From Escherichia phage vB_EcoM_Goslar, in the sequence record NC_048170.1: a stretch of 64,000 nucleotides of DNA, one strand, 5' to 3'. The notes under the pieces are model-generated. The model was not told the DNA's origin and did not search any database. It saw only the letters and a list, made by a program, of their open reading frames with translations. The translations under genes were made by a program, and so were the position numbers. The stretch's first letter is position 1. Every line of letters starts with the position of its first letter. Below are positions 7,549 to 61,318 of the stretch, piece by piece.

Positions 7549-8529
7549 TTAGAAAAGCAAGAAACCGCTATTCTTCGCTTCCGCTACAGTTTCGTCACCA
7601 ACTTTCGGTGCTTGTTGACGTGCGTTACGATGTTCGATGTAACGTTTCGCTTCGTCAGCGATTTGTTTGATAATACCCCCTAAACGATCGGTACTTAAAA
7701 CAAACGACGTCGCTTCACGAATCGGGCTGCTTTCAGGCACAAAACCATCACAGCTATAAATAGCGCTAACACCCATGACTTTTGTCGCGTCTTTCGGATA
7801 AAGCGTACAGAAAGCAATCGGGCTATCGTTCTCTTTCGTCCATTCGTATCCCATGAACGTATTCAGTTCGGTGATCGTCGGTTCCAAACCGGTAACACGT
7901 GGATGGTTTAAGAAGTTTTCCAGGTCGGCGCTGTCAAGACGACGGTTCTCGCCAGAAAACAGAACACAAAGCTGGCTAATAACAACCTGCACGTCCAGGT
8001 TGACATCCTGCTCCGATTTCCCATTTTCGCCATTCATGTGATAGCTAACAATCACTGGACGTTTCAACCCTTCTGCAGCCGCCATCAGTCCTTTGAAGGT
8101 GCGATCGGCGTTGATCGTCTGGCGCTCATCATCGAACGAGGCAACGATACAACACACCACACGTTCACCGCGTTCCAGCAGGTTAGCAACCAACGCAGGA
8201 CCGGCAACAGAACCTGAACCACCGCTCAAACTAAAGACCACGATATTAAATTTACCTGGCGTATGCTTATTGAGAATACCTGGGATTTGTGAACAGATCA
8301 GTTCAGCGTTCTCATCACGCTTCTTACCAGAACCGTCTAACTCACGACCAGCTGCATCTTTAAAGATGTAAATATGATCGTCGCCCAGTGTGCTATCGCG
8401 TAGGTTAGCGCGGCTGGTATCAACATACGTCATGCTGTGTAATCCTTTCGCGACTTCGCCTTCAAATGCTGAGCCGATTTCGCCACCACAACCACCGACA
8501 GCCCAAATATGTACTTGGTTCTCTTGCAT
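7549..8529 (-). CDS. phuZ: tubulin/FtsZ-like GTPase (PhuZ-like)
   Basis: N-terminal WAVGGCGGEIG and SLSGGSGSVAGP (tubulin signature GGGTGSG-like); RBS AGGAG before ATG at 8529. Confidence 0.7.
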   Translation of the reverse strand: MQENQVHIWAVGGCGGEIGSAFEGEVAKGLHSMTYVDTSRANLRDSTLGDDHIYIFKDAAGRELDGSGKKRDENAELICSQIPGILNKHTPGKFNIVVFSLSGGSGSVAGPALVANLLERGERVVCCIVASFDDERQTINADRTFKGLMAAAEGLKRPVIVSYHMNGENGKSEQDVNLDVQVVISQLCVLFSGENRRLDSADLENFLNHPRVTGLEPTITELNTFMGYEWTKENDSPIAFCTLYPKDATKVMGVSAIYSCDGFVPESSPIREATSFVLSTDRLGGIIKQIADEAKRYIEHRNARQQAPKVGDETVAEAKNSGFLLF

Positions 8530-30614: not shown

Positions 30615-31346
30615 TCACCATTCATACGATCCGGCGCACTGATGCCCCAACAGTACCAACGCGTCGTCTTTGGCAGCTAGGTATTTCTCTAACGTTATCC
30701 GTGAAACAGACACATTAGAGAAATCCATCACACCTAAGCGATGATCGTAATGGTTAATTTGCATCCGGTAGTAACCTTTCTTTACCACCAGAAACTCGCC
30801 TTGACGCAACCATAGCGGAACGTTGTCAACCTCCGCATGGATATAAAACACTGGACATTCTGTCGTAACGGAGTTTTCCTTCCCATCGCTATCTGTAATC
30901 TTCCCTTTGGGAACAGCCGCGATAAAACATTCTCCGATACGCTCGGTTTGATACCCGTTTGGATAGCGCGGATCGTGAAATAACCAGTGCTCATCGCTAA
31001 TATCAACATCGGATAATAACGTACGATGTGGACGTAAGGCGATATCAAACGGAACACGATAAATAACGTACCCGCCTAACCAATGGGCTAAGTGACCGCC
31101 AGAAAAATACTGCTTGATTGCGGTACTGTAACCGTATATACAACCCATCAAACTGCTGGATACACAGATCCTTGGAAACGACCCGTCTTCCATACGCAAA
31201 GTACGTTGAGGGATACGTGGCATCATCGTTTTCAGTTCGGTATCGGTGCTGATGTGCAATAAACCGAAAGGAAGCGTTTTACTCGGCACCCACGCACAAC
31301 GTTCCATAATCGCTCTTGGGACAATAGTCTCGATAGACGATAACAT
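30615..31346 (-). CDS. hypothetical protein
   Basis: 243-aa ORF. Confidence 0.5.
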   Translation of the reverse strand: MLSSIETIVPRAIMERCAWVPSKTLPFGLLHISTDTELKTMMPRIPQRTLRMEDGSFPRICVSSSLMGCIYGYSTAIKQYFSGGHLAHWLGGYVIYRVPFDIALRPHRTLLSDVDISDEHWLFHDPRYPNGYQTERIGECFIAAVPKGKITDSDGKENSVTTECPVFYIHAEVDNVPLWLRQGEFLVVKKGYYRMQINHYDHRLGVMDFSNVSVSRITLEKYLAAKDDALVLLGHQCAGSYEW

Positions 31347-31347
31347 A

Positions 31348-32058
31348 TCACCCCCTCAGAATCGCTTCTGTTTCGCTGATCGTATCCGCAGGATAAACCA
31401 AACTACTATCGATTGCGTTATTCACGTAACCACCCATTAAGTTGGTGATGGTGTTTGTGCCGCTATCGATAATGTTTCGTAATCCGATGTCGATGGCTTT
31501 TAAGGTGCTGCGTTCCTCATCCGAAAGCAAACGCCATGCTCGACGACGATCGTTGGGGTCACGTGTGGTGATAGAAGCCAGAACAGAATAGATGCTGCTA
31601 TCCGCATTCAGTTTAACGCCTGCCAATTTCGCTGACGTGTAGAGCAGCTGATATTTTTCTTTCTCAGTGTACCACCATGGCACCTTACCGAGCGTATAGA
31701 TCTCGTTATACATCAGCCATGGGAAAGAGTTTCGCATCACGACATCGGTCGACACCAACACCGTGTCGCCGGGAAGAAACACAAATTCATAAAACGGCTG
31801 GCCATCCATGGTAATTTCACGGATGTCAGAAGGGTCGATATGGAGCTGGGTCAATGCGTGGCTGACACCATACTGACCATCAGGAAGAATAATCGGGCAG
31901 CACGCACAAACCCGGTTCTCACTCCCGATGATAGATAAACCCAATCCCTCGTAACGGACGGGTGTCAGAATCGAACACCCGCCACGAGTAACAACAGATT
32001 TATCTTCTTGTATGTCCCAGTCCGCAAGCACCGCAGCACCGTTGCGGACAAGCGCCAT
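31348..32058 (-). CDS. hypothetical protein
   Basis: 236-aa ORF. Confidence 0.5.
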   Translation of the reverse strand: MALVRNGAAVLADWDIQEDKSVVTRGGCSILTPVRYEGLGLSIIGSENRVCACCPIILPDGQYGVSHALTQLHIDPSDIREITMDGQPFYEFVFLPGDTVLVSTDVVMRNSFPWLMYNEIYTLGKVPWWYTEKEKYQLLYTSAKLAGVKLNADSSIYSVLASITTRDPNDRRRAWRLLSDEERSTLKAIDIGLRNIIDSGTNTITNLMGGYVNNAIDSSLVYPADTISETEAILRG

Positions 32059-33582
32059 TTACACCTCGCTAATCTGGATAACGTAAAGCTGCTGGACCAC
32101 GTAATCGGTGGTCAGATGCATCGTTGCGATGGTTGCTGCTTCGAACACCGTGAGTTCAGGACGTTCACGCATAATCAAATCGATCTCATCGATAAGACGG
32201 TTAACGCCTTGAGCGTCTTCATGATGCATCGTTTTCACGTACAGCGTACGGAAATACTGCTGGAAATTAGCTACGTCGGTATCGGTAAGGGTAGCAACTT
32301 CACCACGCACAATTTCCATGACCTTCTTACGGGTATCTTCATCGAGGTCCACAGTAATCAGATCAGCAAATACACCCTGCAATGCCAGCGCATATGCACG
32401 TAAGCGGTTTGCGGCTTGCTGGCTGGCTTTCATGTTGATGTAGTTACGGTAATGCTGCATGAAGCCTGCGCCGTTAGCCAGCAGCTCATCTTTACTGATG
32501 AGTTCGCGCTCTAACAGGACAGCTGCGGTTAGTGCTTCCGGTGAACCGCCTTCTTGCAGATAACCCATGTAGACATCCGCGTTAACGAAAATCGTCATCG
32601 TTGACGCATCTTCAGCACGTTGAATCTGAGAAGCTGACGGTGCAGAAAGAATCAGTTCACCACGCTCCATACGCAGAATACGATCACGACCGACGCGTGC
32701 CATCCCGTTGATCGCCGCAGCACGAGCTTGTTGCATTTTAGCGCGGTAGTTTTCAAGCATCATGTCGTTGCCGTCCTGGATGTCTTCCAGCAGGTTAACG
32801 GCCCACATATAGCAGAGGAATGCAGGAGTTGCCGCAGCGCGGGAACCGTGGAATGCAACGTTATCGCTATCCGGATATGTAATCAGATAAGCGGTGTTGT
32901 TCGAAGAAGGAGCGGAACCACGGAAGAAATAGTTGTAGATGTCTTCCAGTGCCTGATCGCTCATCCCTTCCGTCGCTTGCTGTACAAAACGATCCAGGTT
33001 TTCATTACCGGTATACAGCAACGTACGCAGCTTGTCACCAGTGATAAACGCAAGCTTTTCGGTTGGGGTGAAATCGTTATTAATCGAAATCAAGCCATTG
33101 AGATCGTAATCGCTAACTAAGGCCTGGTACTCTTCGGAGTTATAAAACTCAGGATAGTAACTCAGACTTACCGTCGGGATCAGTTTCGGTGCCAGGATGA
33201 TCGAATCGATACGTTTTTCCAGTTCCGGGTACAGCGCACGGCATTTCGGCAGGATGGTATTACGCGCCAACTCTTTGGCATACACCACTTTTTCCACCAC
33301 GTCTTGAACTGCGGTCTGTAAAACTTCATCGTGGATATAAACCTCGCGTTCGCTGGCAGGTGCTACAACGCCATCTTCGGTTTCATCGAGTGTTTCAGCA
33401 ACAACCATACGTTCAGCACTAAGTTGCACCAACGCATCCGCGTCTTCCGGTGGCTGGTTCCAATGCATGGTTTCACAAACCGCGGCTAACGGGGTACCTG
33501 GAATCGCAGCGACGATTTGGTTACGTTTGATAAACCCTTCGACAATAGGCTCAACAGCATAAACGGTTTTATTGGTGATCAT
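32059..33582 (-). CDS. hypothetical protein (possible virion protein)
   Basis: 507-aa ORF. Confidence 0.5.
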   Translation of the reverse strand: MITNKTVYAVEPIVEGFIKRNQIVAAIPGTPLAAVCETMHWNQPPEDADALVQLSAERMVVAETLDETEDGVVAPASEREVYIHDEVLQTAVQDVVEKVVYAKELARNTILPKCRALYPELEKRIDSIILAPKLIPTVSLSYYPEFYNSEEYQALVSDYDLNGLISINNDFTPTEKLAFITGDKLRTLLYTGNENLDRFVQQATEGMSDQALEDIYNYFFRGSAPSSNNTAYLITYPDSDNVAFHGSRAAATPAFLCYMWAVNLLEDIQDGNDMMLENYRAKMQQARAAAINGMARVGRDRILRMERGELILSAPSASQIQRAEDASTMTIFVNADVYMGYLQEGGSPEALTAAVLLERELISKDELLANGAGFMQHYRNYINMKASQQAANRLRAYALALQGVFADLITVDLDEDTRKKVMEIVRGEVATLTDTDVANFQQYFRTLYVKTMHHEDAQGVNRLIDEIDLIMRERPELTVFEAATIATMHLTTDYVVQQLYVIQISEV

Positions 33583-33815
33583 TACTGCGCTCCCTCCAAC
33601 GCATTACTACCTACGGGTTCTTTGGTTTCCAGACGGCTGTTTAGGCGCGCAGCAACCGCATCTTCCAATCCCAACGGCATAACCTTTTTGTTCACGTCAG
33701 GATCGGCGGCATCATTACCAACGGTTTGACGTACGACCTCAGCAACCAACGTTACCGCGTTCGTCAGCGCAACAAAGCTCGCTGCCCGAGCCGTGTTAAG
33801 TTGTTCTTGGTTCAT
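33582..33815 (-). CDS. small hypothetical protein
   Basis: 77-aa ORF. Confidence 0.4.
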   Translation of the reverse strand: MNQEQLNTARAASFVALTNAVTLVAEVVRQTVGNDAADPDVNKKVMPLGLEDAVAARLNSRLETKEPVGSNALEGAQ

Positions 33816-33846
33816 TCACTTTTCCTTTTAATGTCAGAGCATCGCA

Positions 33847-33869
33847 TTCTTGACATACGTCAAGAAGGT
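33847..33869 (-). promoter_or_regulatory. ACCTTCTTGACGTA box (copy 1) within palindrome TTCTTGAC-GTAT-GTCAAGAA
   Basis: about 41 nt upstream of ATG at 33815, directly after beta-gene terminator. Confidence 0.45.
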
Positions 33870-33890
33870 ACTGCGTTCAGCGAAATAAAC

Positions 33891-33916
33891 GAGCAGGGGC
33901 ATGAAGCCCCCTGCTC
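33891..33916. terminator. terminator hairpin after RNAP beta-like gene
   Basis: gagcaggggg-c-atgaa-g-ccccctgctc immediately after stop; T-rich on both sides. Confidence 0.55.
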
Positions 33917-36900
33917 TTATTTGGCGTCGTTAAAATAAATATCAACAGCTCGTTCCGTTGCGTAGAGGAGACCAAGATTCACAGTCCCAACCACTTCCGG
34001 TGAACCGATGATACGGTTAGCGATACTGGTGCCACTGAAGATAGCATCAAGGGTGTGCCCGTCTTCGGTTTTGTTCACACCATGACCCACGGAAGAGACA
34101 ACGGATTTCGCTTGTGCTGCGAAGGTACCTTTATCACCCATCCCCGCACCAAGGTCGTAACGCATGAAAATACGGATGGCGATCTGGTTCTCGCCTAACG
34201 GATTACCGTCTATTCTTACGTTACTGTTGTTGATACGCCCCGTTGTTGCTTCGTTGAGTTTCAGTTCCTTAACGCGTTTAGCTCGTGCTTTATCCGCATC
34301 GCCGACGAGCGCTGCCATGGTTTCACTCATATCCTCAATCTGAGCGCGGTACAATACATCGATCTGTACAACTTCACCATGAACGTCAGCACGTGGGTTA
34401 TACTGACTCATACGCCGTAATGCTTCAACGGCTTCCTGACTCTCATCACTCAGATCGGTCGCAATCGGTTCTTCCAGTGTTGCAAGGATCGTTCGTGGTT
34501 CAACATGATCGCCGATTTTCACGAGACCACGAATGTTGAGATGGGCGTCAACGATGAGTGTACGACTCTTAATCGATGGTGTTACGAGACGATCGGCAAG
34601 ATTGTCGAAGATATACGAACTGTCCTCGTGCGTCTCTGGAATATCCAGAATACCGACAAGAGACAGAACACCTGCGCGCCAAACAACCTGACCTGGGTTC
34701 CACCAATCGCGTTTAAAATAAAGACGATGGAAAACCACCACATCCTGATCCTTAACGCGATCCCCGACTTTATAATCGGTAATGAGATCGTGAGGATAAT
34801 ACTTACCTGGTCCTTTCCCGATTATCGTGCCGAGTTGGAAAACCTCTTCTCCTAACTCTGGATCGTCGTATTGTATCGTAAGCGCAGTTTTGGTGACCTT
34901 CTTAACAACACCATCGCCTTGGGCAGCTGCTGCGAAGAGTTTACCAACACGATGCGCGATGACTGTCTCGCCACCCGTACGCCATGGTTGTACATCGTAA
35001 CCTTCAGCAGCAATCATGCGGTTGTGTTGGATTCCGACAAAAACCAGACGTTTTCCATCGTCACGGTCTACAGCCGGAACAGCTAACGCCGACGTACTCA
35101 TTACCGATGAGATACCATCTGTCTTTTCATCGAATGGTCGTGTTTCACCATACACCGACACGATATTAGCATTAGGTGCAAGGTAAGCAGAGATACCCAC
35201 ATCCCCACTATCTTTCGTACCCTCTGACACAATACCAACATCAGACTTGTCGTATTCACGATCGCGTGCGCGTCGAAGCGATGTCTTTGAACGACCTCCG
35301 ATACCGGTCATCGTTGCTTCTTCACCTTGCTTGATATCCAGCATTGGGTTGGTTTCATCAATGACGATAGAAGCACTGTCGTCAAGGATTTGGTTCCAAA
35401 CGCTCACCGGACTGATTGAGATCTTCTGTCGGTTGCCTTGGCTGCTGTTCTCATTCTGACGAATAGCGCCAACCAGGTCCTTATACACCAATTCAGCGAA
35501 CTTATCGTACGTTTTAAAACGTTGGTAGTTCACATCGTTCGTGTTAGGTGCCCAATCATCCAGAAGCAGTTCAACAGCACGCAGTAGCAACATGGCGAAA
35601 TCAGTAGGTTCTCCCATGTTCTGTAATAGCGTACGGCTTACCGGATCAACGAAAAGACGCTCCATGAGTTCAAGTTCGCGTAAATGGCGAACCTTAAGTC
35701 CAGCACCATCGACAACGTTAAAATAGATATCACGATTGTCAAAAGCGCCGCGAGCGTAACCGATGTAGTTACGGTACTCGTTAAACCCACCCAGCAACAA
35801 CGTCGTCATGCGATCGTCTTTACTGAAAATCAAACTTTCATCGTCAAAGCTCACCGCGAATTCATCTGCTGCTAACCCCATACGAGAACCACGAGGTACC
35901 GTACGATAGTTTGCTTTAAGATGTTCTAATAACGGGGTAAGTCCGCCCAGATAACTTAGAACAACGCCAACCGGAATACGTACACCCATGAATTCAAGAT
36001 CGGCGGCTTCGATCGGCATCTTAGCCGCATTGATACCGAAGAAATCAGGGAACGTCCCTACAGGTGTTGGTGTTTGTCCTGACTGACAGATATAGAGCTG
36101 ATTGCGTTCATCGATCGCTAGGAACTCACCCGATGTGTTACGTGCGAACGTCAGGAGTCCTTCGGCTAACTGTTCGTTGAACCGATCTTCCCCAATGAAC
36201 TCCGGCAATGTTTTTATATCGAGACGTATATCCCAATCAGCAAATTGGATTTGGGTATAGTTGCGTGCAAGCACAGCGAAGTAATACGGGACTTTGACAG
36301 CCGGATCAAAGACGTTACCACGTTTTAACGTTGTTAAGGGTGAGGACTTATCGTAATACATCGCCGTAAGTTGACGTGTTAGCCAACGACCGGCGTTATT
36401 AACGACGCGCTCTGAACGTTTAACAAACACCTTACCGTAGGCGGTACTTAATGCAACTTCGGATGATGATACCTTTCTAATAGGTTTATCAACACGTTGT
36501 TTACGCATCCGGTACTTGATGCCGTTAACAACATAAATGCCATCCTTACGAACCTTCGGCAACATCACCGGGAACGTGGTTGGGACACCGCCTACAGGGG
36601 CCAGTTTAATCGTGATGACTTGATAATCCCCCATCACGTCAACAACATCTTCGACTTTATATCCCGTAACAGGGTAACCTGCTTGCTGTACCGCAACAAC
36701 GGCAGCTGCGATGTCCTTTTGCATTACATGCTCAACGTAATGTTTATCCCACACCGCAAGCGTCGATTTACATAGGCTCTTATCGACGATAACATCCGCT
36801 TCCGGCATAACCTTTGCGGGAGCTAATTTTGCGGCTTTTGGTTTAACTTCAACATACTCGGCAAGCGTGAGTCCAGAACCGTCGGGCGCTTCGATTTCAT

Positions 36901-38263
36901 GAATAGCGTCGGCATTACGCATCGCTGCTTTATATTGGACGCCGCTTAACTGACCCGCATCCGCCAGATCGCTCGCGCGCACCAACACCGCATCCGATAA
37001 CGACTGAATATATTCACCGTGCGTTTTTGGTAACGTTGCCGCGTCAAAGACATCAACCTTTTCTTCTTCGGTATCGTCGGTAACGACTTCGAAGAGATCG
37101 TCGGTAATGTCCTGATCTTCATCGGGTTGGAAATCTGGTTGTACTTCTACCCCGGGTACTTCACGGACATCTTCGAACGCGCGTTCTACAATGGCGTTCC
37201 ACGCATCAGCGTCATCGTCTTCATCCGACCCACCGACCAACTCCGCTTCTAACTCGTCGGGGTCAAGAACAGTGGCCAGATCCTCCCCGTTAGGAAGCAT
37301 GACGTCACGATCATCGTACTCCGCATCCGGGCTGTCCGCAAGAATATCTCGCTCTTGACGAAGAACCTGTTCCTCTTCTTGTTTCTGTTCTTCTTCATTC
37401 GCACTCTGCGACCACAGACGTGTTACCGCCATCATCCAACGACGCTGGAAGGTTTCAAGTGTCGTTTTATCGAGTTCTTCCCCTTCCTTTACAAGTCCGG
37501 TACGCCATTCTTCCAGTAGACCAAGATTCAGCGTAAAGAAGTACACACCGTCTGTAAATACAACGTTAAGCTTATCCAGCGTGGCTCTGTCTAACGAAGC
37601 CATCGTGCTGTTCTCACGATCGACGCCCAGCCAGCGGAAGAAGTCAAAGAACGACAGCTCCTCCGGCGTGGCGAAATTCATGAGGTTGTTACGGGTCGGT
37701 GCCTGTTGCGTGGTACGCATCAACGAAATCTTCGGCAATGTTGACGGTATACGGAACAACAAAAAGTGTTGACGATCGCTTTGCTGTGCGATTTCGTTGG
37801 CTTTCGACCAAATTGTTTTACGCACGTTGAACCATTCATCATACCAACGGGTGAGCGTTGGACGATAGATGTACATGTGGTTAAGATGTGCGTAGTTAGC
37901 AACGATCTGAGCGTTGATGTTTTTCTCCACCGTACTTAGATCGGTAACCAAACGAAAACGACGATGCGATGCACGATAATCCAATTTCGCTCGTGGAAGT
38001 TGGAATCGTTGATCGCGTCGAGGTGCACCCTGTTTGGTTGCGAGATCATCAGCAAACGAAATCCATAGTTGAGCACTTTCTTTACTCAGCATGTATTCGT
38101 TTTCTGGAGGACCTATCAATGAAGGATCCGTTGCGGTGTAATGATAGACAGCATAACGCGGCAGCTGCAATAGCTGCACTAAACGTAATCTCGGTGACAA
38201 TAGCTCTTGGTAGCGTCTGACACCAAACTGTCGGTAGTAATCAAGGTATTTAAGTTTTGCCAT
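33917..38263 (-). CDS. multisubunit RNA polymerase beta-like subunit
   Basis: NPMLDIKQGEEATMTGIGGRSKTSLRRARD...SEGTKDSGDVGISAYLAPNANI resembles beta NPLSEITHKRR..GPGGLTRERAG..ETPEGPNIGLI; GDKGTF...GHGVNKTEDGHTLDAIFSGTSI resembles GDKMAGRHGNKGV block; RBS GGAG. Confidence 0.55.
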   Translation of the reverse strand: MAKLKYLDYYRQFGVRRYQELLSPRLRLVQLLQLPRYAVYHYTATDPSLIGPPENEYMLSKESAQLWISFADDLATKQGAPRRDQRFQLPRAKLDYRASHRRFRLVTDLSTVEKNINAQIVANYAHLNHMYIYRPTLTRWYDEWFNVRKTIWSKANEIAQQSDRQHFLLFRIPSTLPKISLMRTTQQAPTRNNLMNFATPEELSFFDFFRWLGVDRENSTMASLDRATLDKLNVVFTDGVYFFTLNLGLLEEWRTGLVKEGEELDKTTLETFQRRWMMAVTRLWSQSANEEEQKQEEEQVLRQERDILADSPDAEYDDRDVMLPNGEDLATVLDPDELEAELVGGSDEDDDADAWNAIVERAFEDVREVPGVEVQPDFQPDEDQDITDDLFEVVTDDTEEEKVDVFDAATLPKTHGEYIQSLSDAVLVRASDLADAGQLSGVQYKAAMRNADAIHEIEAPDGSGLTLAEYVEVKPKAAKLAPAKVMPEADVIVDKSLCKSTLAVWDKHYVEHVMQKDIAAAVVAVQQAGYPVTGYKVEDVVDVMGDYQVITIKLAPVGGVPTTFPVMLPKVRKDGIYVVNGIKYRMRKQRVDKPIRKVSSSEVALSTAYGKVFVKRSERVVNNAGRWLTRQLTAMYYDKSSPLTTLKRGNVFDPAVKVPYYFAVLARNYTQIQFADWDIRLDIKTLPEFIGEDRFNEQLAEGLLTFARNTSGEFLAIDERNQLYICQSGQTPTPVGTFPDFFGINAAKMPIEAADLEFMGVRIPVGVVLSYLGGLTPLLEHLKANYRTVPRGSRMGLAADEFAVSFDDESLIFSKDDRMTTLLLGGFNEYRNYIGYARGAFDNRDIYFNVVDGAGLKVRHLRELELMERLFVDPVSRTLLQNMGEPTDFAMLLLRAVELLLDDWAPNTNDVNYQRFKTYDKFAELVYKDLVGAIRQNENSSQGNRQKISISPVSVWNQILDDSASIVIDETNPMLDIKQGEEATMTGIGGRSKTSLRRARDREYDKSDVGIVSEGTKDSGDVGISAYLAPNANIVSVYGETRPFDEKTDGISSVMSTSALAVPAVDRDDGKRLVFVGIQHNRMIAAEGYDVQPWRTGGETVIAHRVGKLFAAAAQGDGVVKKVTKTALTIQYDDPELGEEVFQLGTIIGKGPGKYYPHDLITDYKVGDRVKDQDVVVFHRLYFKRDWWNPGQVVWRAGVLSLVGILDIPETHEDSSYIFDNLADRLVTPSIKSRTLIVDAHLNIRGLVKIGDHVEPRTILATLEEPIATDLSDESQEAVEALRRMSQYNPRADVHGEVVQIDVLYRAQIEDMSETMAALVGDADKARAKRVKELKLNEATTGRINNSNVRIDGNPLGENQIAIRIFMRYDLGAGMGDKGTFAAQAKSVVSSVGHGVNKTEDGHTLDAIFSGTSIANRIIGSPEVVGTVNLGLLYATERAVDIYFNDAK

Positions 38264-38266
38264 GGG

Positions 38267-38446
38267 TTAGGCTCCACGAGGTCCCGTTAAGTTGCGTAAT
38301 AGGAACGCAACCGTATCGTAACCAATATCAATGTTGAATTTATTTTTACCACTTACCCAGAAAGCTCGCTTCTTGTGCGAGTTGGTAATTTCGTCAATAG
38401 CTTCCATGGAATAAAGAACGTTAACCGAGACCGTATCACCGTCGAA
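38267..38446 (-). CDS. RNAP beta-prime-like subunit, exon 2
   Basis: frame translates FDGDTVSVNVLYSMEAIDEITN...GYDTVAFLLRNLTGPRGA*, colinear with E. coli beta-prime after DFDGD; below 60-codon ORF-track cutoff. Confidence 0.6.
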   Translation of the reverse strand, partial: FDGDTVSVNVLYSMEAIDEITNSHKKRAFWVSGKNKFNIDIGYDTVAFLLRNLTGPRGA

Positions 38447-38930
38447 CCTTGTCTTCGCCTCAGGTCGCTACGCTGAGACCGCCTGCATGGATACGTACAT
38501 CACAGGCTGCTTGCACTTTCATGCAAGAGGAGACTATATCAAACCGTCAGCTTCACTTTCTCGATCATATCGAGAATGCGGCGCTGAAGTATTCTTCAGC
38601 AGCACCTGTTACGGTAACCTACACTTCGAAGACGCTTGTCCTCTACAGGGTGGTAAATCCCTTAGTCGTTGAACCTGCGTTGTTTCACATTCTTACAACC
38701 AAGAATGCCGTATTGCTACGCAATAACCAGGCTGCTGATTGCCCATTGTCTCGCACCTTAGCACCGCTTACGCGGCTTTTCTTTCAGCCTAAGCCTCTTA
38801 CGGAGGTAGTGCATCTCAACTGTTGTTTCTGCCTTTCGGCACCTCATGGGTCGTTGAGCTTTAGGGGTTCCCAGCAATTCGTAGGTTTTTCAAGCACTCC
38901 CTTTCAGGAATACCGGACCTTATAGAAAAG
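38447..38930 (-). ncRNA. group I intron catalytic core (3' part of intron)
   Basis: minus strand: AATTGCTGGGAA (38879-38868), AATCAGCAGCC (38740-38730), GTTCAACGACTAAG (38674-38661), GATATAGTCTCC (38540-38529) in P-Q-R-S order; no ORF of 60 codons or more on the coding strand. Confidence 0.6.
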
Positions 38931-40403
38931 CTATTTATTCAAGTATCTGAAATCCCACTTATCCTTACGTCTATTATCGCACTTGATGTCAGGATGTCTA
39001 ACACGGTGTTGAATCGTAGTCGCTGGTAATTGACTCACATTCACAGCCGATTTCGCGCCAAGAACAATTGTTTTTGTGTTGTCCGGACGAGTAACTTCTA
39101 CCGCTCGATGATGTTTACGTAACACATCACGCCAATACTCACGCCGTTCCGGTTCCGCGTATTCGAGCATATAACCGTTGGTATCGACCAGACCGTAACT
39201 CTCGTTTAAACGAGAGGTGGCGGCTGGTCTACTAATACCAATCGCTTTAGCCGCGTCAACCACGGTTTTATACGGGGTCTCATTACCGTCTCTATCTACA
39301 ACCACAATAAAATCTGGACGCGAATCGAGCAGCTGCTGTCTTCGTTCAAGGGCTTGTTGATGAAGCACCTTATTAACATGTTCGAACCCGTAACCTTCTG
39401 GACCGTGCCACCCTGGATTGTTATTCGCTCGATAAAGTATCGTCGCAGATTTCACTCCCGTCTGACGTGACGCCTCGTTCGCACTATGGACAACCGTGGT
39501 AGTGCCATCAGGGTGATATATCCGTATCTGGTTCATTATACCAGAACCAACGAAATTACCATCAGCTGATTTAATGTCCGGCCAGGGTTGTGGATCATCT
39601 TTGAATTTAACCACCCAACGGTTGTTAAACAATTTGACTTTCCGAGCATGTTTACCTAATGTCGTGTCTGTAACACCGGCTACAGCAGAGGCTTGCGCGA
39701 TACTAGGATATTCCGTGACCACATCTTCTTCAGTATCCCAAAGGAGAACCGGTTTGTTATCATCACGTAGTCCGGTCTCAACCGCATGTAGAATATTTCT
39801 AAGGCGGGTTGCCCATTCTAGATTGTCTAACGCGTAATTCCACTTATCGCCATCAAGATGGTTAACGTCCATCCTATCGACATCAGCCGGATAATCTTTC
39901 CACGCTAAGAGCAGACAGCGATGAAGCGATCTTCTCTGGGATTTAAATCGGCAATCATGCTGCATACTAACGAAAACATAGCTATCGTCAACACACCAGT
40001 GAGGACACTGACGGCCAGTAATACGGTTGATGATTCTACCTTTCCGGTTGGCCAAATAACGAGTGTGTCCGGGAATGACACGATAACCTGGGTACTTAGC
40101 GATTTCGTAAGCAGGCTCGAACCGATAGGATAAATTATCAACATCCCAGTTAGATTCGTCACCATCAACAAACATCGCTTTGACGTATTTCTGTGTTTCA
40201 ATATCAACCAGGATGTTTTTGTGTGCGATACAAATCAATGCTGGGATATTGAATTCGCGACCGGCTATGATAACCGTGTCGCCATTTCTCGGTACCTCGA
40301 CGTGGGTATCGCGATACCGTAAGTTTCCATAGCCGTCTATTTCAATCCAGCTTAAAAACGGAATGGGTATAAACTCTTTTTCAGATACTCGCCATTTAAA
40401 CAT
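38931..40403 (-). CDS. HNH homing endonuclease (intron-encoded)
   Basis: HNH motif VNHLDGDKWNYALDNLEWATRLRN; C-terminal repeated DNA-binding-like modules (SIAQASAVAGVTDTTLGKHARK, TVVDAAKAIGISRPAATSRL). Confidence 0.8.
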   Translation of the reverse strand: MFKWRVSEKEFIPIPFLSWIEIDGYGNLRYRDTHVEVPRNGDTVIIAGREFNIPALICIAHKNILVDIETQKYVKAMFVDGDESNWDVDNLSYRFEPAYEIAKYPGYRVIPGHTRYLANRKGRIINRITGRQCPHWCVDDSYVFVSMQHDCRFKSQRRSLHRCLLLAWKDYPADVDRMDVNHLDGDKWNYALDNLEWATRLRNILHAVETGLRDDNKPVLLWDTEEDVVTEYPSIAQASAVAGVTDTTLGKHARKVKLFNNRWVVKFKDDPQPWPDIKSADGNFVGSGIMNQIRIYHPDGTTTVVHSANEASRQTGVKSATILYRANNNPGWHGPEGYGFEHVNKVLHQQALERRQQLLDSRPDFIVVVDRDGNETPYKTVVDAAKAIGISRPAATSRLNESYGLVDTNGYMLEYAEPERREYWRDVLRKHHRAVEVTRPDNTKTIVLGAKSAVNVSQLPATTIQHRVRHPDIKCDNRRKDKWDFRYLNK

Positions 40404-40410
40404 TTCAATA

Positions 40411-40440
40411 CCTATTAATTACCACTTTCATATTAATAGG
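40411..40440 (-). promoter_or_regulatory. AT-rich 9-bp hairpin just upstream of HNH start codon
   Basis: minus strand cctattaat-atgaaagtggta-attaatagg ending 8 nt before ATG. Confidence 0.35.
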
Positions 40441-40490
40441 TTTAAAAGTTAAATTTGCCAGAAAACTGGCATTTTGTTAGCCTTTCCTTG

Positions 40491-41957
40491 ATCACCGCCA
40501 AGTCCGGCGAGGTATGGCGCAGGGACAATAGTAGTTTCTACGAACGAGGCATTAGGTAACCAGTCGGGGTATTCCCACGCAATAAATCGCTCATCCGTTA
40601 TTGGTTCCCAGTTACTATCAAGTTCAGTTTTCGGTTTTGCTGCAACGGTCGTACGCGCGTAACAGGTTAACGGAATGACGGATTGCATACCCGATACCGG
40701 ATAACGTGTTACCATTGCAGCCAGGTTATTCCAGTATTTATATCCTGCGATATACACTAATTCGGTATACGTGATAGGGTGAACATCTGCACCAGGTTTG
40801 TTAAGCATCTCCGGAGGTAATTCACTCATACCACGGAATAACCGAAACGAATCATTGTTCACATAGACAAGACAAAGATATCGTCCATTAACCATGATAG
40901 GTTCGTTACGCACACCCGGATCGCTTAAGGTGTTCAGTAAGCGTTCTATTCCGTCCCAGGTTGTAAAGTCATCGATGGTGTCTGGATCAAGCGTGACGCG
41001 TTCACGTTCCATCGTTTCGGTATCAATAAGTTCAACTTCTGTAACATCACGGACAAATATTTCCTGCAAAATCCCCGTACGTAATGCATGTTGCGTTACA
41101 GGGAGAGCAGCTTTACTCATCTGGTATAACCCTAACTGAACCGCGGTACAGGAAGGCTGGTTAGGCGACCCTAGTACCTCCGTTGTGGGGTTAATTGCTG
41201 AAATAACGTTACGGGTTGAGTTCCAAACGCGACGTGAACCAAACTTACCTTGGAAGATCCCTTTCTTACCTTGGAACATATCCAACAACAAAGCGTAGAT
41301 ATCGTTAAATGTTCTCTGTAAGCTCCAGCGCTGGCCGTCGTAAACGGGATCAGAATAATCTTTTAATCCATCGGGGACGGTGTTAGAAATTGCAAGGAAA
41401 CGACGATACAACTCTGTAATCTCTTGCTCGCTTTCATACCCGCCTTCTTTTACTTCTATTTCACGTAAGCCTGCAGGCAATACCAGTAAGTGACGGGTCA
41501 TCGCTTTGAACATGTTCTCTTCGACAACTTTAATTCGTAGCTCTCGTTGAGCTGAGCCCGTTGAAACGAACTTGATATCCGCGACGTGTTGTGCAAAGAA
41601 CCCGTATCCTGTTTGTCCTGTTAACGCATCAGACGCAACGAAGTCGCGTTGTTCAGGATCCCAACGAGCGTACGCCTTCCCCGACATGATATCACCATAG
41701 AGGTGTTTTAGTCGAATGAGGCGGTCGTAAATGACAGGGTGCAGGATTTCAACTTTACATTCAATCACCGCAAATCGACGGTCTCGATCTTCACTACCCG
41801 CACTACCAAAGATGGTGTAAGAATAGAAACCATCATCGTGGAAATTACCGGTGCTTGGGTCACGAATGCTCATGCTCGTGATCTTGGGGAGAAAACGTAA
41901 CTGCTGTTTATCGAGGTGTAAAATGCTAATGTTAAACGGCTCTCTGACTTTAGCCAT
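40491..41957 (-). CDS. RNAP beta-prime-like subunit (N-terminal fragment), exon 1
   Basis: RBS GAGGAG before ATG at 41957; blocks LLVLPAGLREIEV, KKGIFQGKFGSRRVWNSTRNVISAINP, RYPVSGMQSVIP align with [41 protein letters not shown]; ORF-track tail past 40491 is intron read-through. Confidence 0.6.
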
Positions 41958-42202
41958 GGAGACACTCCTCTTTACCACCACCGGCTGCGGCGGTATCATC
42001 TGAACACACGAGAGACGTAATGGGTGATGGCGTCACCCATCGCTTCCTTGCTTGAGGCGAGGAAGTTATTAGGTTACGTACCTGCGTGATAAAATCAAGC
42101 AGGCGATGTGTGAAGTTACGCTTCAACATTATCAATGCCGAAGGTAAACTTCGTGCATCACGTTCCAACGTAACATGGGAACGTATCGAACTGGAGGTAT
42201 AC

Positions 42203-45200
42203 ATGGTAGATAAAACCCGTGTTGAGGGTGATGATAATTGGGATAACTGGGATGAAGACTTCTCCCTGGATCTCGATTTTAACGAACCCAAAGACGATCG
42301 TAAACCGATAACACGCTTTGCGATAGGAGCGGTTAAAGGTGCTGCTGAGGATCTTACTTCCTACGAAAGAATGAAGGAGATCGCCAGAAACGCATTGCCT
42401 AAGGGCTACAGCGACGGTATGGATCTTATCGATTCCGCCGTCGGATCCACGAAGGAACTATACAATGAAGCCGTTCGTGACGTTCTTCCTAAGGTCCAAA
42501 GCTCAAAACGGTTAGCAGCACAACTGACCAAGAAATACCGTGCGAGCATGCCCGATTTCTCGAAGAAAATTCTTGAGCAATGGGAGCGAGAAGCCAAGGA
42601 AGAAGACGAACGTAAACAAGCTGAAGAAGCCCTTCGTCAACGCATGGCGAGCGCGGGGGACGATGAGATCGCCCGCAAGGTTGCCGAGGCATTAGGCGAA
42701 TCAGCAAACCAAAGCGCGGATCAGTTTGCTGAACAGCAAGCGAAAGAAAGTATCCGTGACGATATCGCTGACAAACGGTACGCTGTAACCAACAAACAAA
42801 TGAGTGCGATGCAAGAAGGCGTCGCCAAGATGGTTGGTTTCAACAATGAATTCGCTGCACGCTACATGCGTAAAAGCCTGGAACTGAAATATCGTTCCTT
42901 AGCGATTCAACGTGCAAGTTTCGATCAGCATAAAAAGTTAGCCGAAGTCTATATCGGTCTATTACAAAACATCCAGAAGAATACGGCTTTACCTGATGCA
43001 GCTAAAGCGAAGATGTCGGAAGAATTCCGTCGTAGTGCATACCAACGTTTCTTTGGTAATGCGTTAGATGCGATGGGTTCTTTCGAGAACCGTTTCTTTG
43101 CCGATGTTAAGAAGAACCTCGCCACCAACGCATTAGGTGCTTTAAAAGGCGTCGTGTCTGGCGCAAACGATGCGTTATACGGTTTAAACGAAGCACGTGA
43201 CTCGATGTCCATGATGGACGGGATGGGGTCAGAAGGCGATATTAAGGAAATGCAAGGAAGGATGTTGGGTCAGTTCATTGGCTCAACTGTCGCGCCGTGG
43301 ATGGCTAATAAAGGCAGGATGGCGTTACGCGATTTAGCAAAACGTCACCCCAATGCTAAATTCGCAGGTGCGTTAAAAGCCGTGGATCAAGGTGGTGAGG
43401 CTGCCGCTTACACGACGCGTAATCTCGGTAAACTGCTCCAGGAAGATATTCGTAAGAACGAATTCAATCTTAGCGATCCATTTTACAAGCAATTGTTACG
43501 CGGCGCAGGGCGTTGGGCGTTCAACATGGACAGCGGACGTAACTTCCGTGTGATGAACGACACCGCTGAAACACTGGCAGAGCAAACATCTTTCGACGGT
43601 TTAACCTACCGCAGCATCAACGAGGTTATTCCGGGCTTTCTTGCACGCATTCTGAAAAGCAGTGAGGGTATCCGCACCGGAAACAGCGATCCTGACTACG
43701 AGGTCTATGACGGCATCAGCGGGCAATTCGTGGCTCAGCGCACGCGCGAACAAAGCGTCAACGACACGCTGTTTAACAAACGTTCGTTTGGTTATTACGC
43801 AAGCCGTTTCAATGAGGTTATCTCGGTCATCGATCCCGATAAACAATTATCGGAAAAAGCCAGAAAGGCGCTGGCCAAGCAGTTGGCACGAGATAGCGAC
43901 GCAAACATTGCATTCGACCCAGCTCGTTTTACGGATGAAAGCAACTTCGATCGTAGTATCGACCGTGACGCTATTAAGGAACTTTCCACATACTTTCGAG
44001 ACCGTTACGGTATTCGTGATGATGTCAACGATAAGGGCGAACGTCATCAGGTCATTGGAAACCGCGGGCAATATTACACGGAACGTAACCGAGCTGACCT
44101 TCGCTACGGAAATCTGAAATCGTTACAACCGGATATTCAGCGTAACCTTAACCTACTGAAACGTACTGGTGACGTCCAATATCTGGAACGTATCGGTATC
44201 GTAACGAGAAATAGCGACGGAAGCTACTCAGTTAATCACGATCGGTATTTCTCTGAAATCGATCGATACATCGACCGACCGGAGTACGCTGACCGCGGCG
44301 ATGTTAATACGCGATTAACCGCTCAGGAAACAAGAGCGCTGGCGTTGGGTTATCGTGACGCAAAACCATCAACTGGTGACGTCCAAAATGCGGGTCTGCC
44401 GAACATCGATCGTAAGGCTGCTGGAACAGTAACCGTTGATGAAAACATCGGCTACGATAAATGGTGGAACGACGCTGGCGTTATCACTACATCGCTTGAA
44501 GAACAGAATCGAGCATGGCAAGAACTCTATCTCGAAGCGTTATCTGAAGCATCCGAACAACGTGTCGAAATGCTTGCGTTGCTGAAAGCCATTTCTGAGA
44601 AAGACTGGTCTAATAACGTTTCGCTGGATGGTGAAGACGTACCTGAAGGTGCAGCGCCCATTTCATTTATCGATCGCGCCAAACAAAAACTCGGCGGACG
44701 CAACCTCTTTAAAGGTGGCCGTAATCTCCTCTGGAAAGGAATTAAAAATACCGCACGATTGGGTGTTAAAGGCGCACGTTGGGGTGCAGAACGTACATTA
44801 GGTAGTTTGGTAAATTCCGGCCGACGTATTATCAATTTCAACCGTTTTGTGTTCGGCGCATTATCCAAGGTCGATCAGGTTCCGTTTGACATTTACGTTA
44901 AAGGGGAATCCCAACCACGCATACTGGCTGCCAAACTTCGTCAGGGGTTATACTTCGACGAGGCGACAGGAAAAGCCGTAAAACGGATGAAGGATATCAA
45001 AGGCCCACTCGTTGATGCGGATGGAAACGTCGTAATCAGCAACGAGGATATCGAGAAAGGGCTGGTCACTCGCGCTGGTCGTGCCTTTGAGAATTCAGGA
45101 CTTAAGGCGTGGGCGCATGAAGGTCTTAATGGAATAACGACGGTATTAAGTCTGCCACGGATGTTAAAACGCGGTGCGGTTGAGATCTACAAACAGCTTG

Positions 45201-55449: not shown

Positions 55450-56124
55450 TTAGCCCTCATCAAGGTTATTCTGGAGATGCATCGCGGTGAGGATAACGCC
55501 AACCGCCGAAACCGATTTTGCCTTGCTGTCTTCAGGGAGCTGCTCCAAGCTTACGGTACCTGTTTCTAACAGCATGCGGTTCATCGCGTTGAACTTCTTA
55601 TCGTCACCACCACGAGCCTGCATCAGTTCTCGGTTCACGTTCGGCATCGAGCGTCCTAACGTTGCTTGCATTTCCGGCTGACTCCAAGTGGAACCTTTAC
55701 TATCACCCGTCGGCTGATTGGTGAGCTGGTCCTTGGTGTTGTTGTTTTTCGGAATCGATATTTTAGCACTCAACGTTTCGGCTTGTCGGCGGTTTGGAAT
55801 CAAGTACAATCTGGTTGGACGGTCACGAAGCACCAGTTGTCCTGTTTTCTGGTCGGTGAGGTAAATACGCTGGAAGAAAGGGAAACCGTATTTCTTACCG
55901 ACTTCCAACGCACGTTTTATCGTCACCTCGTTTTTGTTCATGTTGGGTACCCAGATGGGTAGAATCTCTTTCTTATCCCGACATAAACGCATATAGGCAT
56001 CAAACGTCTCATCATCGATTTCAGCAAAACGTTTTTTGTAAATAGCGTAAGTCGGGCTCGATTCACCCACCAGGTCTTTGATATACCCAAGAATGAATTT
56101 TTCTGCTGCAGCGCGGTTGGACAT
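55450..56124 (-). CDS. hypothetical protein
   Basis: 224-aa ORF. Confidence 0.5.
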   Translation of the reverse strand: MSNRAAAEKFILGYIKDLVGESSPTYAIYKKRFAEIDDETFDAYMRLCRDKKEILPIWVPNMNKNEVTIKRALEVGKKYGFPFFQRIYLTDQKTGQLVLRDRPTRLYLIPNRRQAETLSAKISIPKNNNTKDQLTNQPTGDSKGSTWSQPEMQATLGRSMPNVNRELMQARGGDDKKFNAMNRMLLETGTVSLEQLPEDSKAKSVSAVGVILTAMHLQNNLDEG

Positions 56125-56861: not shown

Positions 56862-58352
56862 TTATTTTTTACTCGGACGATTCAATGCGGGTACCGGGTT
56901 CTTTGGTTGCTTTGTCTTTTCATCCATCCAGTACGGGAAGTACTCACCGGTACGCATACGCAATAAGTCCATTGTGGACAGGAACGGCAGTGGGTTAGGA
57001 TCGTCCAAATACGTCCAGTAACCACGCGTGTTTAACAATACATCCCAATCGAAACCTTTTGCTTTAAGATCGTCGTACAGTTCCTGTGGGGTGCAATACA
57101 GCTGTGGGTTTTCGTAAACCTCTTGACGCCAGAGATTATGCATCTGACACAGCTCCGACGTGATTTCCAGAGCACGCTGTAAATACTCATCCTCTTCGCA
57201 AAGAGAACGAATGGTCGTACGCTGCAACGCAACATCCGGATAAATATCCAAATATACCGTTGAAGCACCATCAGCTGATTTACCACCTGACGCATGCATA
57301 CCCCAACCACGCATCCAATCTTTATCGCGCAGGTAGTGGTATTCCGTTAATGATGGTTTAACCCCTTCGCTCTGACTAACCACAATCGGGAACGGTAAGC
57401 CGGTGGGTCCGTTTTTAGCACGCATGTTGAAGACTTGAATCAACTGCAGATCGGTATCCCCGATAAGGTTGTCACCAGGCCCACGCGGATAAAGGACGCG
57501 TTTATCGGCGTTCTGAAGAATCGTCAGTTTATCGATTTTCCAGAGGTTATTCGTATAAAACGTGAAGCGTTCCGGGACGTTCTTAAACTTCTCATCGCCC
57601 TTAAACCCTTTCAGTTTTCGTACCGGCTGCTGTCCAGGCATACCACCGACGTTTACACCATCACCAAGGTGGGCAGTCATGGTAATGTAGATACCCGCCG
57701 ACGCTGTGAGTACTGGCATCTGTGATAAAATCTGGCTTTTCGCTGCTGCGGAACGCATCGCTTCAGCATTCAGTTTTGCACCACCAGCGGTTTCTTTATC
57801 GAACAATGCATCAACAGCATCGATTGGTAACCCAGAGAAACTGTCGATGAGTACAACGGTCGGCAACCACCAGGTATAGTTCTCACCGTGTTTATTAATA
57901 AACGGAACGGCTTTGCGTTGAGATTTATCTTTGACCTTGTCGTCACGGAATTTCTTAATCGCATCAAACCAAATGTTACCGCTCATCTGAACAGCATCGG
58001 TGATAAACACACGTTCTTCTTCGAAAAGATCGACACCTGCGATATTAGACATGTTCATCGCAAGCGTTAAGATACGTGTTGTCGTTAACGACATTTCTGT
58101 GTCGTAAACGCTACTATTGCTGTTTGCGTAACGATCGATAACGCGTAACAAGCGAAACATTATGAACGTGGTTTTGTTCATGTTGCCGCGAGCGCCTGCG
58201 CCCTCAACAAGCATCATGCCGCCATTACAAATGCTTTCACCGTGTTTACCGACATAGTACCGACCACCAGATGTGGGAATATCCATTAAGCAACCAATGT
58301 TGAGATTAAAACGCATCTCTTCACCAGGAGAAAGGTACTTATTAAGATTCAT
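56862..58352 (-). CDS. RecA-fold ATPase, possibly UvsX/RecA-like recombinase
   Basis: VEGAGARGNMNKTTF (P-loop-like), VVLIDSFSGL (Walker B-like). Confidence 0.4.
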   Translation of the reverse strand: MNLNKYLSPGEEMRFNLNIGCLMDIPTSGGRYYVGKHGESICNGGMMLVEGAGARGNMNKTTFIMFRLLRVIDRYANSNSSVYDTEMSLTTTRILTLAMNMSNIAGVDLFEEERVFITDAVQMSGNIWFDAIKKFRDDKVKDKSQRKAVPFINKHGENYTWWLPTVVLIDSFSGLPIDAVDALFDKETAGGAKLNAEAMRSAAAKSQILSQMPVLTASAGIYITMTAHLGDGVNVGGMPGQQPVRKLKGFKGDEKFKNVPERFTFYTNNLWKIDKLTILQNADKRVLYPRGPGDNLIGDTDLQLIQVFNMRAKNGPTGLPFPIVVSQSEGVKPSLTEYHYLRDKDWMRGWGMHASGGKSADGASTVYLDIYPDVALQRTTIRSLCEEDEYLQRALEITSELCQMHNLWRQEVYENPQLYCTPQELYDDLKAKGFDWDVLLNTRGYWTYLDDPNPLPFLSTMDLLRMRTGEYFPYWMDEKTKQPKNPVPALNRPSKK

Positions 58353-59779: not shown

Positions 59780-61318
59780 TTACTCCAACACATAACGTGG
59801 GTTACTGTATATGTTAGCCCATATACCAACGTCGTCTCCTGATTCGATAATCACAGCGAAACGAAACGCAACATCAGATTCACGATAAGTTACCGCGTAC
59901 GCTTTCGTTTCTGGCGATGCTAAATAGCTCAAGTTCAGACGTTGAGGTAGGTCTAACCCCAAGGACATGGTACAAGACGTAACGCCCTGCTTATCGGGGG
60001 TCAGTCTGTAATTCACGTCCACCTTCAAGCTTTTCGTAACCTGCGTAATCGCACTATGCACTTTGGTAACCGTTTTGCCTTTCTTATCCTTTTCTGTTTC
60101 GAAAAGAACGTCGGTAATTTCGGTTACAACCAGGCGCGGTGTGGATTCGCGGTTAGCATCCAGCCATTCATCCAGCAACGTCTTTAAGAAGTTCAAGGAA
60201 TCAATCGCGCGCCAAGCAAGGTTAGGTGGATTGCACGCTTCCATTAGAATGGCTGTGTTGGATCCACCTAGCGGAAGATGCACGCTCTTACCGAGGCCCG
60301 TCGGACGCATCGTAAGATCGCACTCGCCCTCAAGAATATCGCGATGATACTGACGATGATGAAGGTTATCCGTGTATGCGATATACACTGACTCCGTTGT
60401 CCCATGCTCTAATACCCGAGATGCATGCGTACGCATAATCTCAACAGCATCATCCGGCTTGCTTAAATAGATAACACTGTACGCACTATCGCTAATCCTT
60501 TTCCCTAACTCAAGACGTCCCTTGTTGTCTTTATCAGTGTTACCACCGAAATAGATGTAGCGGCCATCTTTCGCACGCTCTTGCTGCTGGTTGGTGGTAA
60601 AGTAGCAGCGTGAGAACGTAAAGAACGGGCTTATTTCCGGTTCGGGGCTCCAATACCCCTTAGCCGGAAGTTCGCGGCGTATTTGGGTTCTTACAGCCCA
60701 GTCCTGGTTTTGTGACAGATATGTTCCACGCGTTGCCAGCATATCCGCACGTTCGTTACCAACATTGCCCTCATGTCCAGGAACGTAGCGCAGCGAAATA
60801 TCGATAGCGTCGCGCTTCGCATCCCTTATCGCGCTATCGAGTTTCCGCCACCGTTCCGCATTCATTAACGGTTTATTGTCGGATTTAACCCAGTTGTTCT
60901 CTCGCCAGTTAGCAAGATGGTTGGTGGCACCTACAACAACATATTGGCTGTCCGACAACAGCTGGATCCGTTTTGCCCCCTTTGCTTTTCCAAGTTCAAT
61001 CGCACGTATTGCAGCATCCAACTCAGCCTGATTGTTCGTTACGTTGAAACCCAAAGCCTCTAACTCATCCACGTATTCCTTGGGTTCGACCAGCACAGCG
61101 TCTTTAGGAAAGTCGAGTTTAGGGTCAACATAACCGTATTGCGTTGGTTTGGGCTTCCCACTTTTTGAGGGTTCCAAGGTGCCTTTTATTTCTTTCACCA
61201 TATCGTAGGTGTAGCCGTGCACGCCGTAGCCACCATACCCACTCGATGTTGGACGGGATCCTCCATCACAGTAGAAAACGGCACCGAGCTCAGTATTTCC
61301 TGCCATTGTAAACCTCAT
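59780..61318 (-). CDS. RNase H-domain protein with C-terminal extension
   Basis: N-terminal FYCDGGS...NNQAELDAAIRAIE...LLSDSQYVV...NW...GHEGNVGNERADMLA matches RNase HI catalytic blocks. Confidence 0.7.
   Translation of the reverse strand: MRFTMAGNTELGAVFYCDGGSRPTSSGYGGYGVHGYTYDMVKEIKGTLEPSKSGKPKPTQYGYVDPKLDFPKDAVLVEPKEYVDELEALGFNVTNNQAELDAAIRAIELGKAKGAKRIQLLSDSQYVVVGATNHLANWRENNWVKSDNKPLMNAERWRKLDSAIRDAKRDAIDISLRYVPGHEGNVGNERADMLATRGTYLSQNQDWAVRTQIRRELPAKGYWSPEPEISPFFTFSRCYFTTNQQQERAKDGRYIYFGGNTDKDNKGRLELGKRISDSAYSVIYLSKPDDAVEIMRTHASRVLEHGTTESVYIAYTDNLHHRQYHRDILEGECDLTMRPTGLGKSVHLPLGGSNTAILMEACNPPNLAWRAIDSLNFLKTLLDEWLDANRESTPRLVVTEITDVLFETEKDKKGKTVTKVHSAITQVTKSLKVDVNYRLTPDKQGVTSCTMSLGLDLPQRLNLSYLASPETKAYAVTYRESDVAFRFAVIIESGDDVGIWANIYSNPRYVLE

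Follow-up and report, generated by a model that had tools for sequence, protein, structure and literature searches.

Results

Identification of the β subunit

We analyzed a 64,000-nucleotide stretch of DNA from Escherichia phage vB_EcoM_Goslar (NC_048170.1; this whole stretch is referred to below as the window), in which a 1448-residue open reading frame (ORF) on the minus strand very probably encodes βN, the large β-like subunit of a multisubunit RNA polymerase (RNAP) packaged in the virion of a divergent, phiKZ-like, nucleus-forming jumbo phage. The protein matched PHROG 3148, 'RNA polymerase beta subunit', across residues 4-1443 (E=0; profile positions 2-1420 of 1424), and tblastn aligned phiKZ gp178 with its residues 2-1433 at 32% identity. 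When βN was itself used as the tblastn query, 311 jumbo-phage records were found at 30-37% identity, 223 of which span at least 80% of the query; megablast of positions 33917-42000 against 50,697 phage records gave no nucleotide-level match. Because a word-indexed homolog search returned only 3 proteins, it was replaced by an exhaustive phmmer search of residues 560-1448 against 1.84 billion cluster representatives, which yielded 2020 representatives at E<=1e-3 and 1259 at E<=1e-30.

A profile built from 49 sequences of the βN family matched the β subunit of Thermus thermophilus (1iw7_C) in the PDB with E=2.6e-16, and the matched stretches were collinear on the bacterial chain (118-139, 395-464, 533-656 and 822-871 of 1119). 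The AlphaFold2 model of residues 560-1448 was of good quality (mean predicted local distance difference test score, pLDDT, 89.3; predicted template modeling score, pTM, 0.82), and the top 50 Foldseek matches of this model in the PDB were all bacterial RNAP β chains (E 5e-27 to 1.8e-24, probability 1.00). Identity in these structural alignments was 11-14%, with a template modeling (TM) score of ~0.5 normalised to the query. An earlier note on this DNA had called the protein β-like from the letters alone, and both the profile and the structure searches bear that description out. Two results weigh against the assignment: neither the 1448-residue protein nor the 224-residue protein described below matched any Pfam family even at E<=10, and phmmer searches of the PDB with each of them as a single query returned nothing relevant. 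Since single-sequence searches find no RNAP, the β assignment depends on family membership, the profile matches and the structure model.

The two sequence blocks named in the earlier note are present, and the residues expected at an active site are conserved. The F-like block reads DRDDGKR (residues 1066-1072), the ED motif ETHEDSS (1210-1216, with the pair E1213/D1214) and the H-like block GMGDKGTF…AQAKSV (1374-1388, with K1378 and K1386). Across the 49 family sequences, K819, K827 and D655 of the query fragment, corresponding to K1378, K1386 and D1214 of the full-length protein, were invariant, and E654 (E1213) was conserved in at least 90%; further invariant or near-invariant columns comprised G-GGR (fork), DDxKR and GDK…K. 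Residues ~450-1448 are homologous to bacterial β through the GDK/two-lysine double-psi β-barrel (DPBB) block, and thus carry the lobes, the fork, the equivalent of the Rif region, the flap and the DPBB with the ED pair and the two catalytic-site lysines.

The β sequence is divided between two chains

The βN chain stops shortly after the H-like block, as the earlier note had observed, although the distance is 60 residues instead of the ~50 given there. The last block to match, GDK…IDAIF, lies at T. thermophilus β 822-871; ~40 more family positions follow, after which ~210 β residues are unaccounted for. Judged from the best 150 of the 2020 matches, nearly all relatives are 1300-1590 residues long, the others being shorter fragments, and in nearly all of these 150 the match reaches within a few residues of the C-terminus.

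The remaining β residues were located ~17 kb from the βN gene, in the 224-residue ORF that we designate βC. The phiKZ gp149 protein aligned with positions 56124..55462(-) by tblastn (38.8% identity, E=3e-42), and the ORF matched PHROG 3233 (E=1e-65). A profile of 13 βC sequences aligned to E. coli RpoB 1161-1315 of 1342, including the QQP-GG…GE-E segment, and its nine best matches were all E. coli-type RpoB. This alignment is specific and collinear, but with E=0.0015 it is weak, which counts against the assignment. The two pieces therefore abut on the β sequence. A full-length β that simply lost its C-terminus was considered and rejected, as the C-terminal region sits on the separate 224-residue protein. 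The supposition that this region is encoded elsewhere was therefore correct, and a search for the C-terminal fragments of both β and β' placed the two of them within the window (Table 1). We propose that βC would supply in trans the β C-terminus that clamps onto β'.

The β' pieces and the group I intron

The gene directly upstream of βN had been read as β', and our results identify it as the N-terminal part of β' (β'N). The 516-residue ORF at 40449..41999(-) matched PHROG 2986 at profile positions 3-484 of 539, and phiKZ gp180 aligned with exon 1 at 38% identity from position 41957 to exactly 40491. A profile of 8 β'N sequences matched the β' N subunit of the AR9 non-virion RNAP (7S00_d; E=2.8e-13) and E. 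coli β' 211-356 (E~5e-6). The DFDGD motif, which is invariant in the β'N family, aligns with DYDGD of AR9.

The β'N gene is interrupted by a group I intron, whose core scored 67.7 bits against the Rfam model, and is completed by the exon 2 described in the earlier note. Exon 2 opens FDGDTVSVNV…, bearing the last three acidic residues of D-F-D-G-D, so that β'N made without it would lose them. An intron-less metagenomic relative, L005 (60% identical in βN and 70% in β'N), has a continuous 547-residue β'N gene that reads …KGLGGDFDGDTVSVNAVYSMEAI…LRNLTGPRN before its stop and whose C-terminus matches exon 1 plus exon 2. Comparison with L005 puts the 5' splice site after T40491 (…GGC GGT GAT) and the 3' splice site after G38447 (…AAGG, followed by TTC GAC GGT GAT…), giving a predicted spliced β'N of 489 + 59 = 548 residues with GGD-FDGD restored. 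In phiKZ, the gp180 ORF ends …ILAPLGAD at its stop, and the frame picks up again as FDGDTVSFNAVYS… ~1.4 kb further on, stopping 2 nt short of gp178. The phiKZ intron (L003, 36346-37790) matched RF00028 with 92.2 bits, and its exon 2 begins FDGDTVSF. The interruption, GAD in phiKZ and GGD in the window before FDGD, therefore falls at the identical codon. RefSeq annotates phiKZ exon 1 alone as gp180. Both PA7 and L005 lack the intron, and such a patchy distribution is as expected of a homing element. One published result stands against splicing: in phiKZ, long-read RNA-seq revealed no spliced transcripts for the corresponding intron (PMC10914365).

In phiKZ, the virion RNAP (vRNAP) consists of five polypeptides, gp178, gp149, gp180, gp80 and gp176 (PMC12809450, PMC7598289), of which gp178, gp149, gp180 and gp80 co-immunoprecipitate (PMC10612078); the SPN3US counterparts are βN gp241, βC gp218, β'N gp240, β'M gp42 and β'C gp244 (PMC5105663; review PMC7598289). 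The window holds 4 of the 5 expected genes. The fourth, found three genes downstream of βN, is gp176-like, and gp176/gp244 has been proposed to be the C-terminal-most β' fragment of the vRNAP (PMC5105663, PMC7598289). The fifth was missing from the window, a point against the assignment: tblastn with phiKZ gp80 detected no middle β' piece at E<=1e-3, in a search confined to the 64-kb window. PHROG scans of 43 window ORFs (all those of at least 400 residues and most unnested ones of at least 150) identified no further RNAP family. We suggest that β' would be made as three pieces, namely the intron-split β'N bearing DFDGD, a gp80-like middle piece encoded outside the window, and the gp176-like piece.

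Virion polymerase, non-virion polymerase or relic

Both polymerases of jumbo phages are built of split β- and β'-like pieces, and the annotation 'RNA polymerase beta subunit' cannot separate them, so the gene might instead encode a subunit of the middle/late, nucleus-resident non-virion RNAP (nvRNAP). We consider this very improbable. It was gp178, and neither gp123 nor gp71-73, that gave the best and the full-length matches; as tblastn queries, gp71, gp73 and gp74 found no RNAP gene in the window, and the solved nvRNAP β chains of phiKZ and AR9 were not among the PDB matches of the βN profile. Moreover, β of the nvRNAP is broken at another position (PMC7598289), its two-lysine DPBB fragment (gp71-73) forms a shorter protein of its own (PMC8287921), and the neighbours of βN are head or virion genes (gp175 protease, gp176 and gp181). 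In phiKZ, the gp180 and gp178 proteins are found in virions and not in the phage nucleus (PMC10612078). We likewise give hardly any credence to the possibility that the protein is a catalytically dead, degenerate β relic, kept as a structural head or ejection protein. Its extreme divergence from bacterial β in the structural alignments, the failure of the Pfam RpoB models to detect it, and its large non-β N-terminal region would each fit a relic, but the active-site residues (two lysines, ED pair and GGR fork motif) are invariant or nearly so in 49 distant homologs, the partner β'N keeps DFDGD invariant, and the phiKZ vRNAP is needed for rifampicin-insensitive early transcription (PMC13282480, PMC8287921). 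On these points, both the nvRNAP subunit and the dead structural relic were rejected in favor of the vRNAP βN.

Packaging of a vRNAP in the head is known for phiKZ, SPN3US, 201phi2-1 and others (PMC10612078, PMC5105663), and by analogy with these phages we infer that the window polymerase is packaged as well. It would then be injected together with the DNA and transcribe the early genes.

An N-terminal region without β homology

The N-terminal ~400 residues of βN lack β homology. In a model of residues 1-559 (mean pLDDT 84), residues 1-~300 formed an α/β domain unrelated to β (pLDDT >90; window positions 37394-38263(-) correspond to residues 1-~290), residues 315-408 were disordered (pLDDT <50), and residues 415-559 were folded again, running into the β core. 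The disordered part largely coincides with an acidic linker, residues ~290-410 (37034-37396(-)), that contains 47 D/E compared to 7 K/R. Neither the α/β domain nor the linker had a relative among solved structures in the PDB. Across the βN family, the domain is kept at 20-30% identity and the linker is variable.

An amber mutant of SPN3US gp241 produces virions that lose all vRNAP subunits, and the ~400-residue N-terminal extension of gp241 has been proposed to be a head-targeting domain that brings the pre-assembled enzyme into the prohead (PMC5105663). By analogy, the most likely role of the N-terminal ~400 residues of βN would be to guide the pre-assembled polymerase into the prohead. The domain and polyacidic linker could together represent a dedicated capsid-loading and ejection module for a multisubunit polymerase, and the linker, by mimicking DNA, might hold the polymerase off the packaged genome.

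The β'N-βN junction

The minus strand at 38278..38261 reads CGT GGA GCC TAA CCC ATG, exactly as the earlier note had it, so that the β'N stop (TAA, 38269..38267) and the βN start (ATG, 38263..38261) are separated by a 3-nt spacer, and the Shine-Dalgarno core GGAG lies inside the last codons of exon 2. A GGAG, GAGG or AGGA core was present within 17 nt upstream of 18 of the 25 confidently assigned window genes, compared to 7.9% of random 17-mers, and GGAG is therefore the usual ribosome-binding signal of the window genome. The short spacer is kept among relatives: the distance from β'N stop to βN start is 1 nt in L005, 2 nt in PA7, phiKZ and Eowyn, 3 nt in Phabio, 5 nt in PhiPA3 and −4 nt (an overlap) in FLC9, while it is 24 nt in Xoo-sp14.

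This spacing fits a likely, albeit unproven, translational coupling of β'N and βN, which together make up the active centre; ribosomes ending β'N would probably re-initiate on βN and give near-equimolar partners. A compact genome would have such spacing in any event, and GGAG could support independent βN initiation; we regard an uncoupled βN, starting at its own GGAG next to a junction that reflects genome compaction only, as a real if less favored possibility. In its support, the βN GGAG is not special given how common such cores are in the window, neighbouring genes are packed as tightly (33582/33582, 32059/32058 and 31348/31346), the Xoo-sp14 spacer is long, and RNA folding at the junction gave a weak 6-bp stem, pairing GUGG of the Shine-Dalgarno region with CCAUGG, that was no better than shuffled sequences (z=−1.06). 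These observations all count against coupling. However, a terminating ribosome would open such a weak stem, β'N and βN, whose DPBB pair makes the active site, are obligate partners, and a spacing of −4 to +5 nt has been kept in 7 of 8 genomes that share only ~30-40% protein identity.

Coupled translation of β'N and βN would have a further consequence. Ribosomes read exon 2 only after the intron has been removed, so coupling would make β synthesis depend on β'N splicing and, if this is true, the stoichiometry of β'N and βN would be tied to intron excision. Both ideas, of the N-terminal domain and linker as a capsid-loading and ejection module and of β synthesis gated by splicing, seem doubtful to us. 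In any case, the N-terminal module and the splicing-linked β start are common to the gene family, as the phiKZ layout is identical, and are not peculiar to the window.

A hairpin that resembles an intrinsic terminator begins one base past the βN stop and is the strongest such site in 31000-42400, which suggests that the β'N-βN pair forms a transcription unit ending there. We picture this pair as one late transcription unit that would close at the hairpin. A scan of the same region for σ70-like promoters found no excess (16 compared to 16.8 in shuffled sequences), as expected of a phage that uses its own polymerases. The ~100-nt gap between βN and the 77-residue ORF (33582-33815) is the only sizeable intergenic space of the block.

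Gene context

The minus strand carries in order β'N exon 1, the intron with its HNH ORF, exon 2, βN, the hairpin, the 77-residue ORF, a 507-residue ORF, the gp176-like gene, a 243-residue ORF and a gp175-like head protease gene. The earlier note had placed a giant lysozyme-domain gene on the opposite strand after both RNAP genes; the strand and the domain, an endolysin domain, proved right, but the gene lies upstream of β'N exon 1 and is divergently transcribed. The phiKZ order is the same, with gp181 reading away from gp180-(gp179 intron)-gp178-gp177.1-gp177-gp176-gp175, and this order recurs in PA7, Xoo-sp14, Eowyn, FLC9, Phabio, PhiPA3 and L005. In PhiPA3 (L023, 2498-8232), an endonuclease gene (210) has inserted into βN itself, which is annotated there as two ORFs (genes 211 and 209). 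With the insertion in βN there and the intron in β'N here, the vRNAP gene that mobile elements target differs between lineages.

Table 1. Positions of the polymerase genes and associated features in the window.
Feature	Position	Strand	Evidence or remark
βN gene, 1448 aa; phiKZ gp178 / SPN3US gp241 family	33917..38263	-	ORF, PHROG 3148, gp178 match, RpoB profile, AlphaFold2/Foldseek
GGAG Shine-Dalgarno core of βN gene	38272..38275	-	within last codons of β' exon 2, 8 nt before ATG
βC gene, 224 aa; phiKZ gp149 / SPN3US gp218 family	55450..56124	-	gp149 tblastn, PHROG 3233, RpoB profile alignment
β'N exon 1, phiKZ gp180 homolog, 489 codons from ATG 41957	40491..41957	-	PHROG 2986 (E=3e-161), gp180 match, β' profile
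Group I intron	38447..40490	-	interrupts β'N after GGD codon; Rfam RF00028
Group I catalytic core	38510..38938	-	Rfam RF00028, 67.7 bits, gathering score 50
Homing-endonuclease ORF, 490 aa, phiKZ gp179-like	38931..40403	-	Pfam HNH_3 + NUMOD1
β'N exon 2, 59 codons + TAA	38267..38446	-	translation; alignment with intron-less L005 and PA7
gp176-like gene, 236 aa; phiKZ gp176 / SPN3US gp244 homolog	31348..32058	-	28.6% identity, E=2e-30; PHROG 2926
9-bp hairpin (7 GC) then GTTTATTT, intrinsic-terminator-like	33891..33916	-	starts one base past βN stop
Giant gp181-like tail lysin, 2260 aa	42086..48868	+	endolysin domain; upstream of β' exon 1, divergently transcribed
PhuZ-type tubulin gene	7549..8529	-	PHROG 4733, E=2e-68

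Comparison with known systems

The closest parallel is phiKZ, whose gp178 (1451 residues compared to 1448) is alignable over the whole length and ends at the same point past the GDK block. The neighbours are also alike (a divergent gp181-like giant lysin upstream; gp177.1, gp177, gp176 and gp175 downstream), β'N stops 2 nt before βN in phiKZ and 3 nt in the window, both phages carry a group I intron with an HNH ORF at the same β'N codon, and βC equals gp149 in length. The two systems are nonetheless well diverged. Identity to gp178 is only 32% at the amino acid level, nucleotide similarity is absent and the acidic linker is not alignable; the intron ORFs (490 residues in the window, 357 in phiKZ) are 31% identical, and the β gene and the gp149 homolog are ~17 kb apart, compared to ~27 kb in phiKZ. 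SPN3US follows the same five-piece plan, with a ~400-residue non-β N-terminal region, a βC of ~222-224 residues and a β'C of ~236-240 residues (PMC5105663), and the SPN3US-like βC of phage SPFM16 is 27% identical to that of the window. The genetic and proteomic evidence, namely the essentiality of gp241 and the loss of all vRNAP subunits from heads of the amber mutant, comes from SPN3US (PMC5105663).

With bacterial RpoB, the protein shares the fold of residues 560-1448, the collinear blocks, the two DPBB lysines and the ED pair. In contrast to RpoB, the last ~210 β residues reside on a separate chain, βN has the extra ~400-residue N-terminal region, and the Pfam RNA_pol_Rpb2 domains, which describe the single-chain protein, do not recognise it. 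Gene order is reversed as well, β'N preceding β here and rpoB preceding rpoC in bacteria. These phages have no known α or ω partner (PMC7598289). The nvRNAPs of phiKZ (gp123 and gp71-73) and AR9 are likewise split jumbo-phage β homologs, but their β fragments are divided at another site (PMC7598289), lack an N-terminal head-targeting extension and are not packaged.

Taken together, the window polymerase is a divergent yet ordinary member of a well-described system, and since the split plan, gene order and intron site were already described in phiKZ and SPN3US, the finding leaves existing knowledge of them unchanged. Its value is mainly one of annotation: the window becomes readable as a phiKZ-like nucleus-forming jumbo phage, and the 516-residue ORF, the HNH ORF and the 59-codon tail can be read as one intron-split β'N gene. 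A homolog this divergent (30-37% identity to phage records) is also useful for defining the invariant core of a polymerase without α, ω and σ.

Other observations

The PhuZ-type tubulin gene places the phage among the nucleus-forming Chimalliviridae. Six ORFs of 162-325 residues at 3884-6845(-), whose maximal frames overlap and whose GC content is unremarkable, matched no PHROG family and none of the 58 phiKZ proteins tested. As in phiKZ, the βC gene sits next to genes for a UvsX-like (56862-58352) and an RNase H-like (59780-61318) protein, and two IMG/VR contigs, among them IMGVR_UViG_3300011560_000001, are 99% identical to the window at the βC locus.

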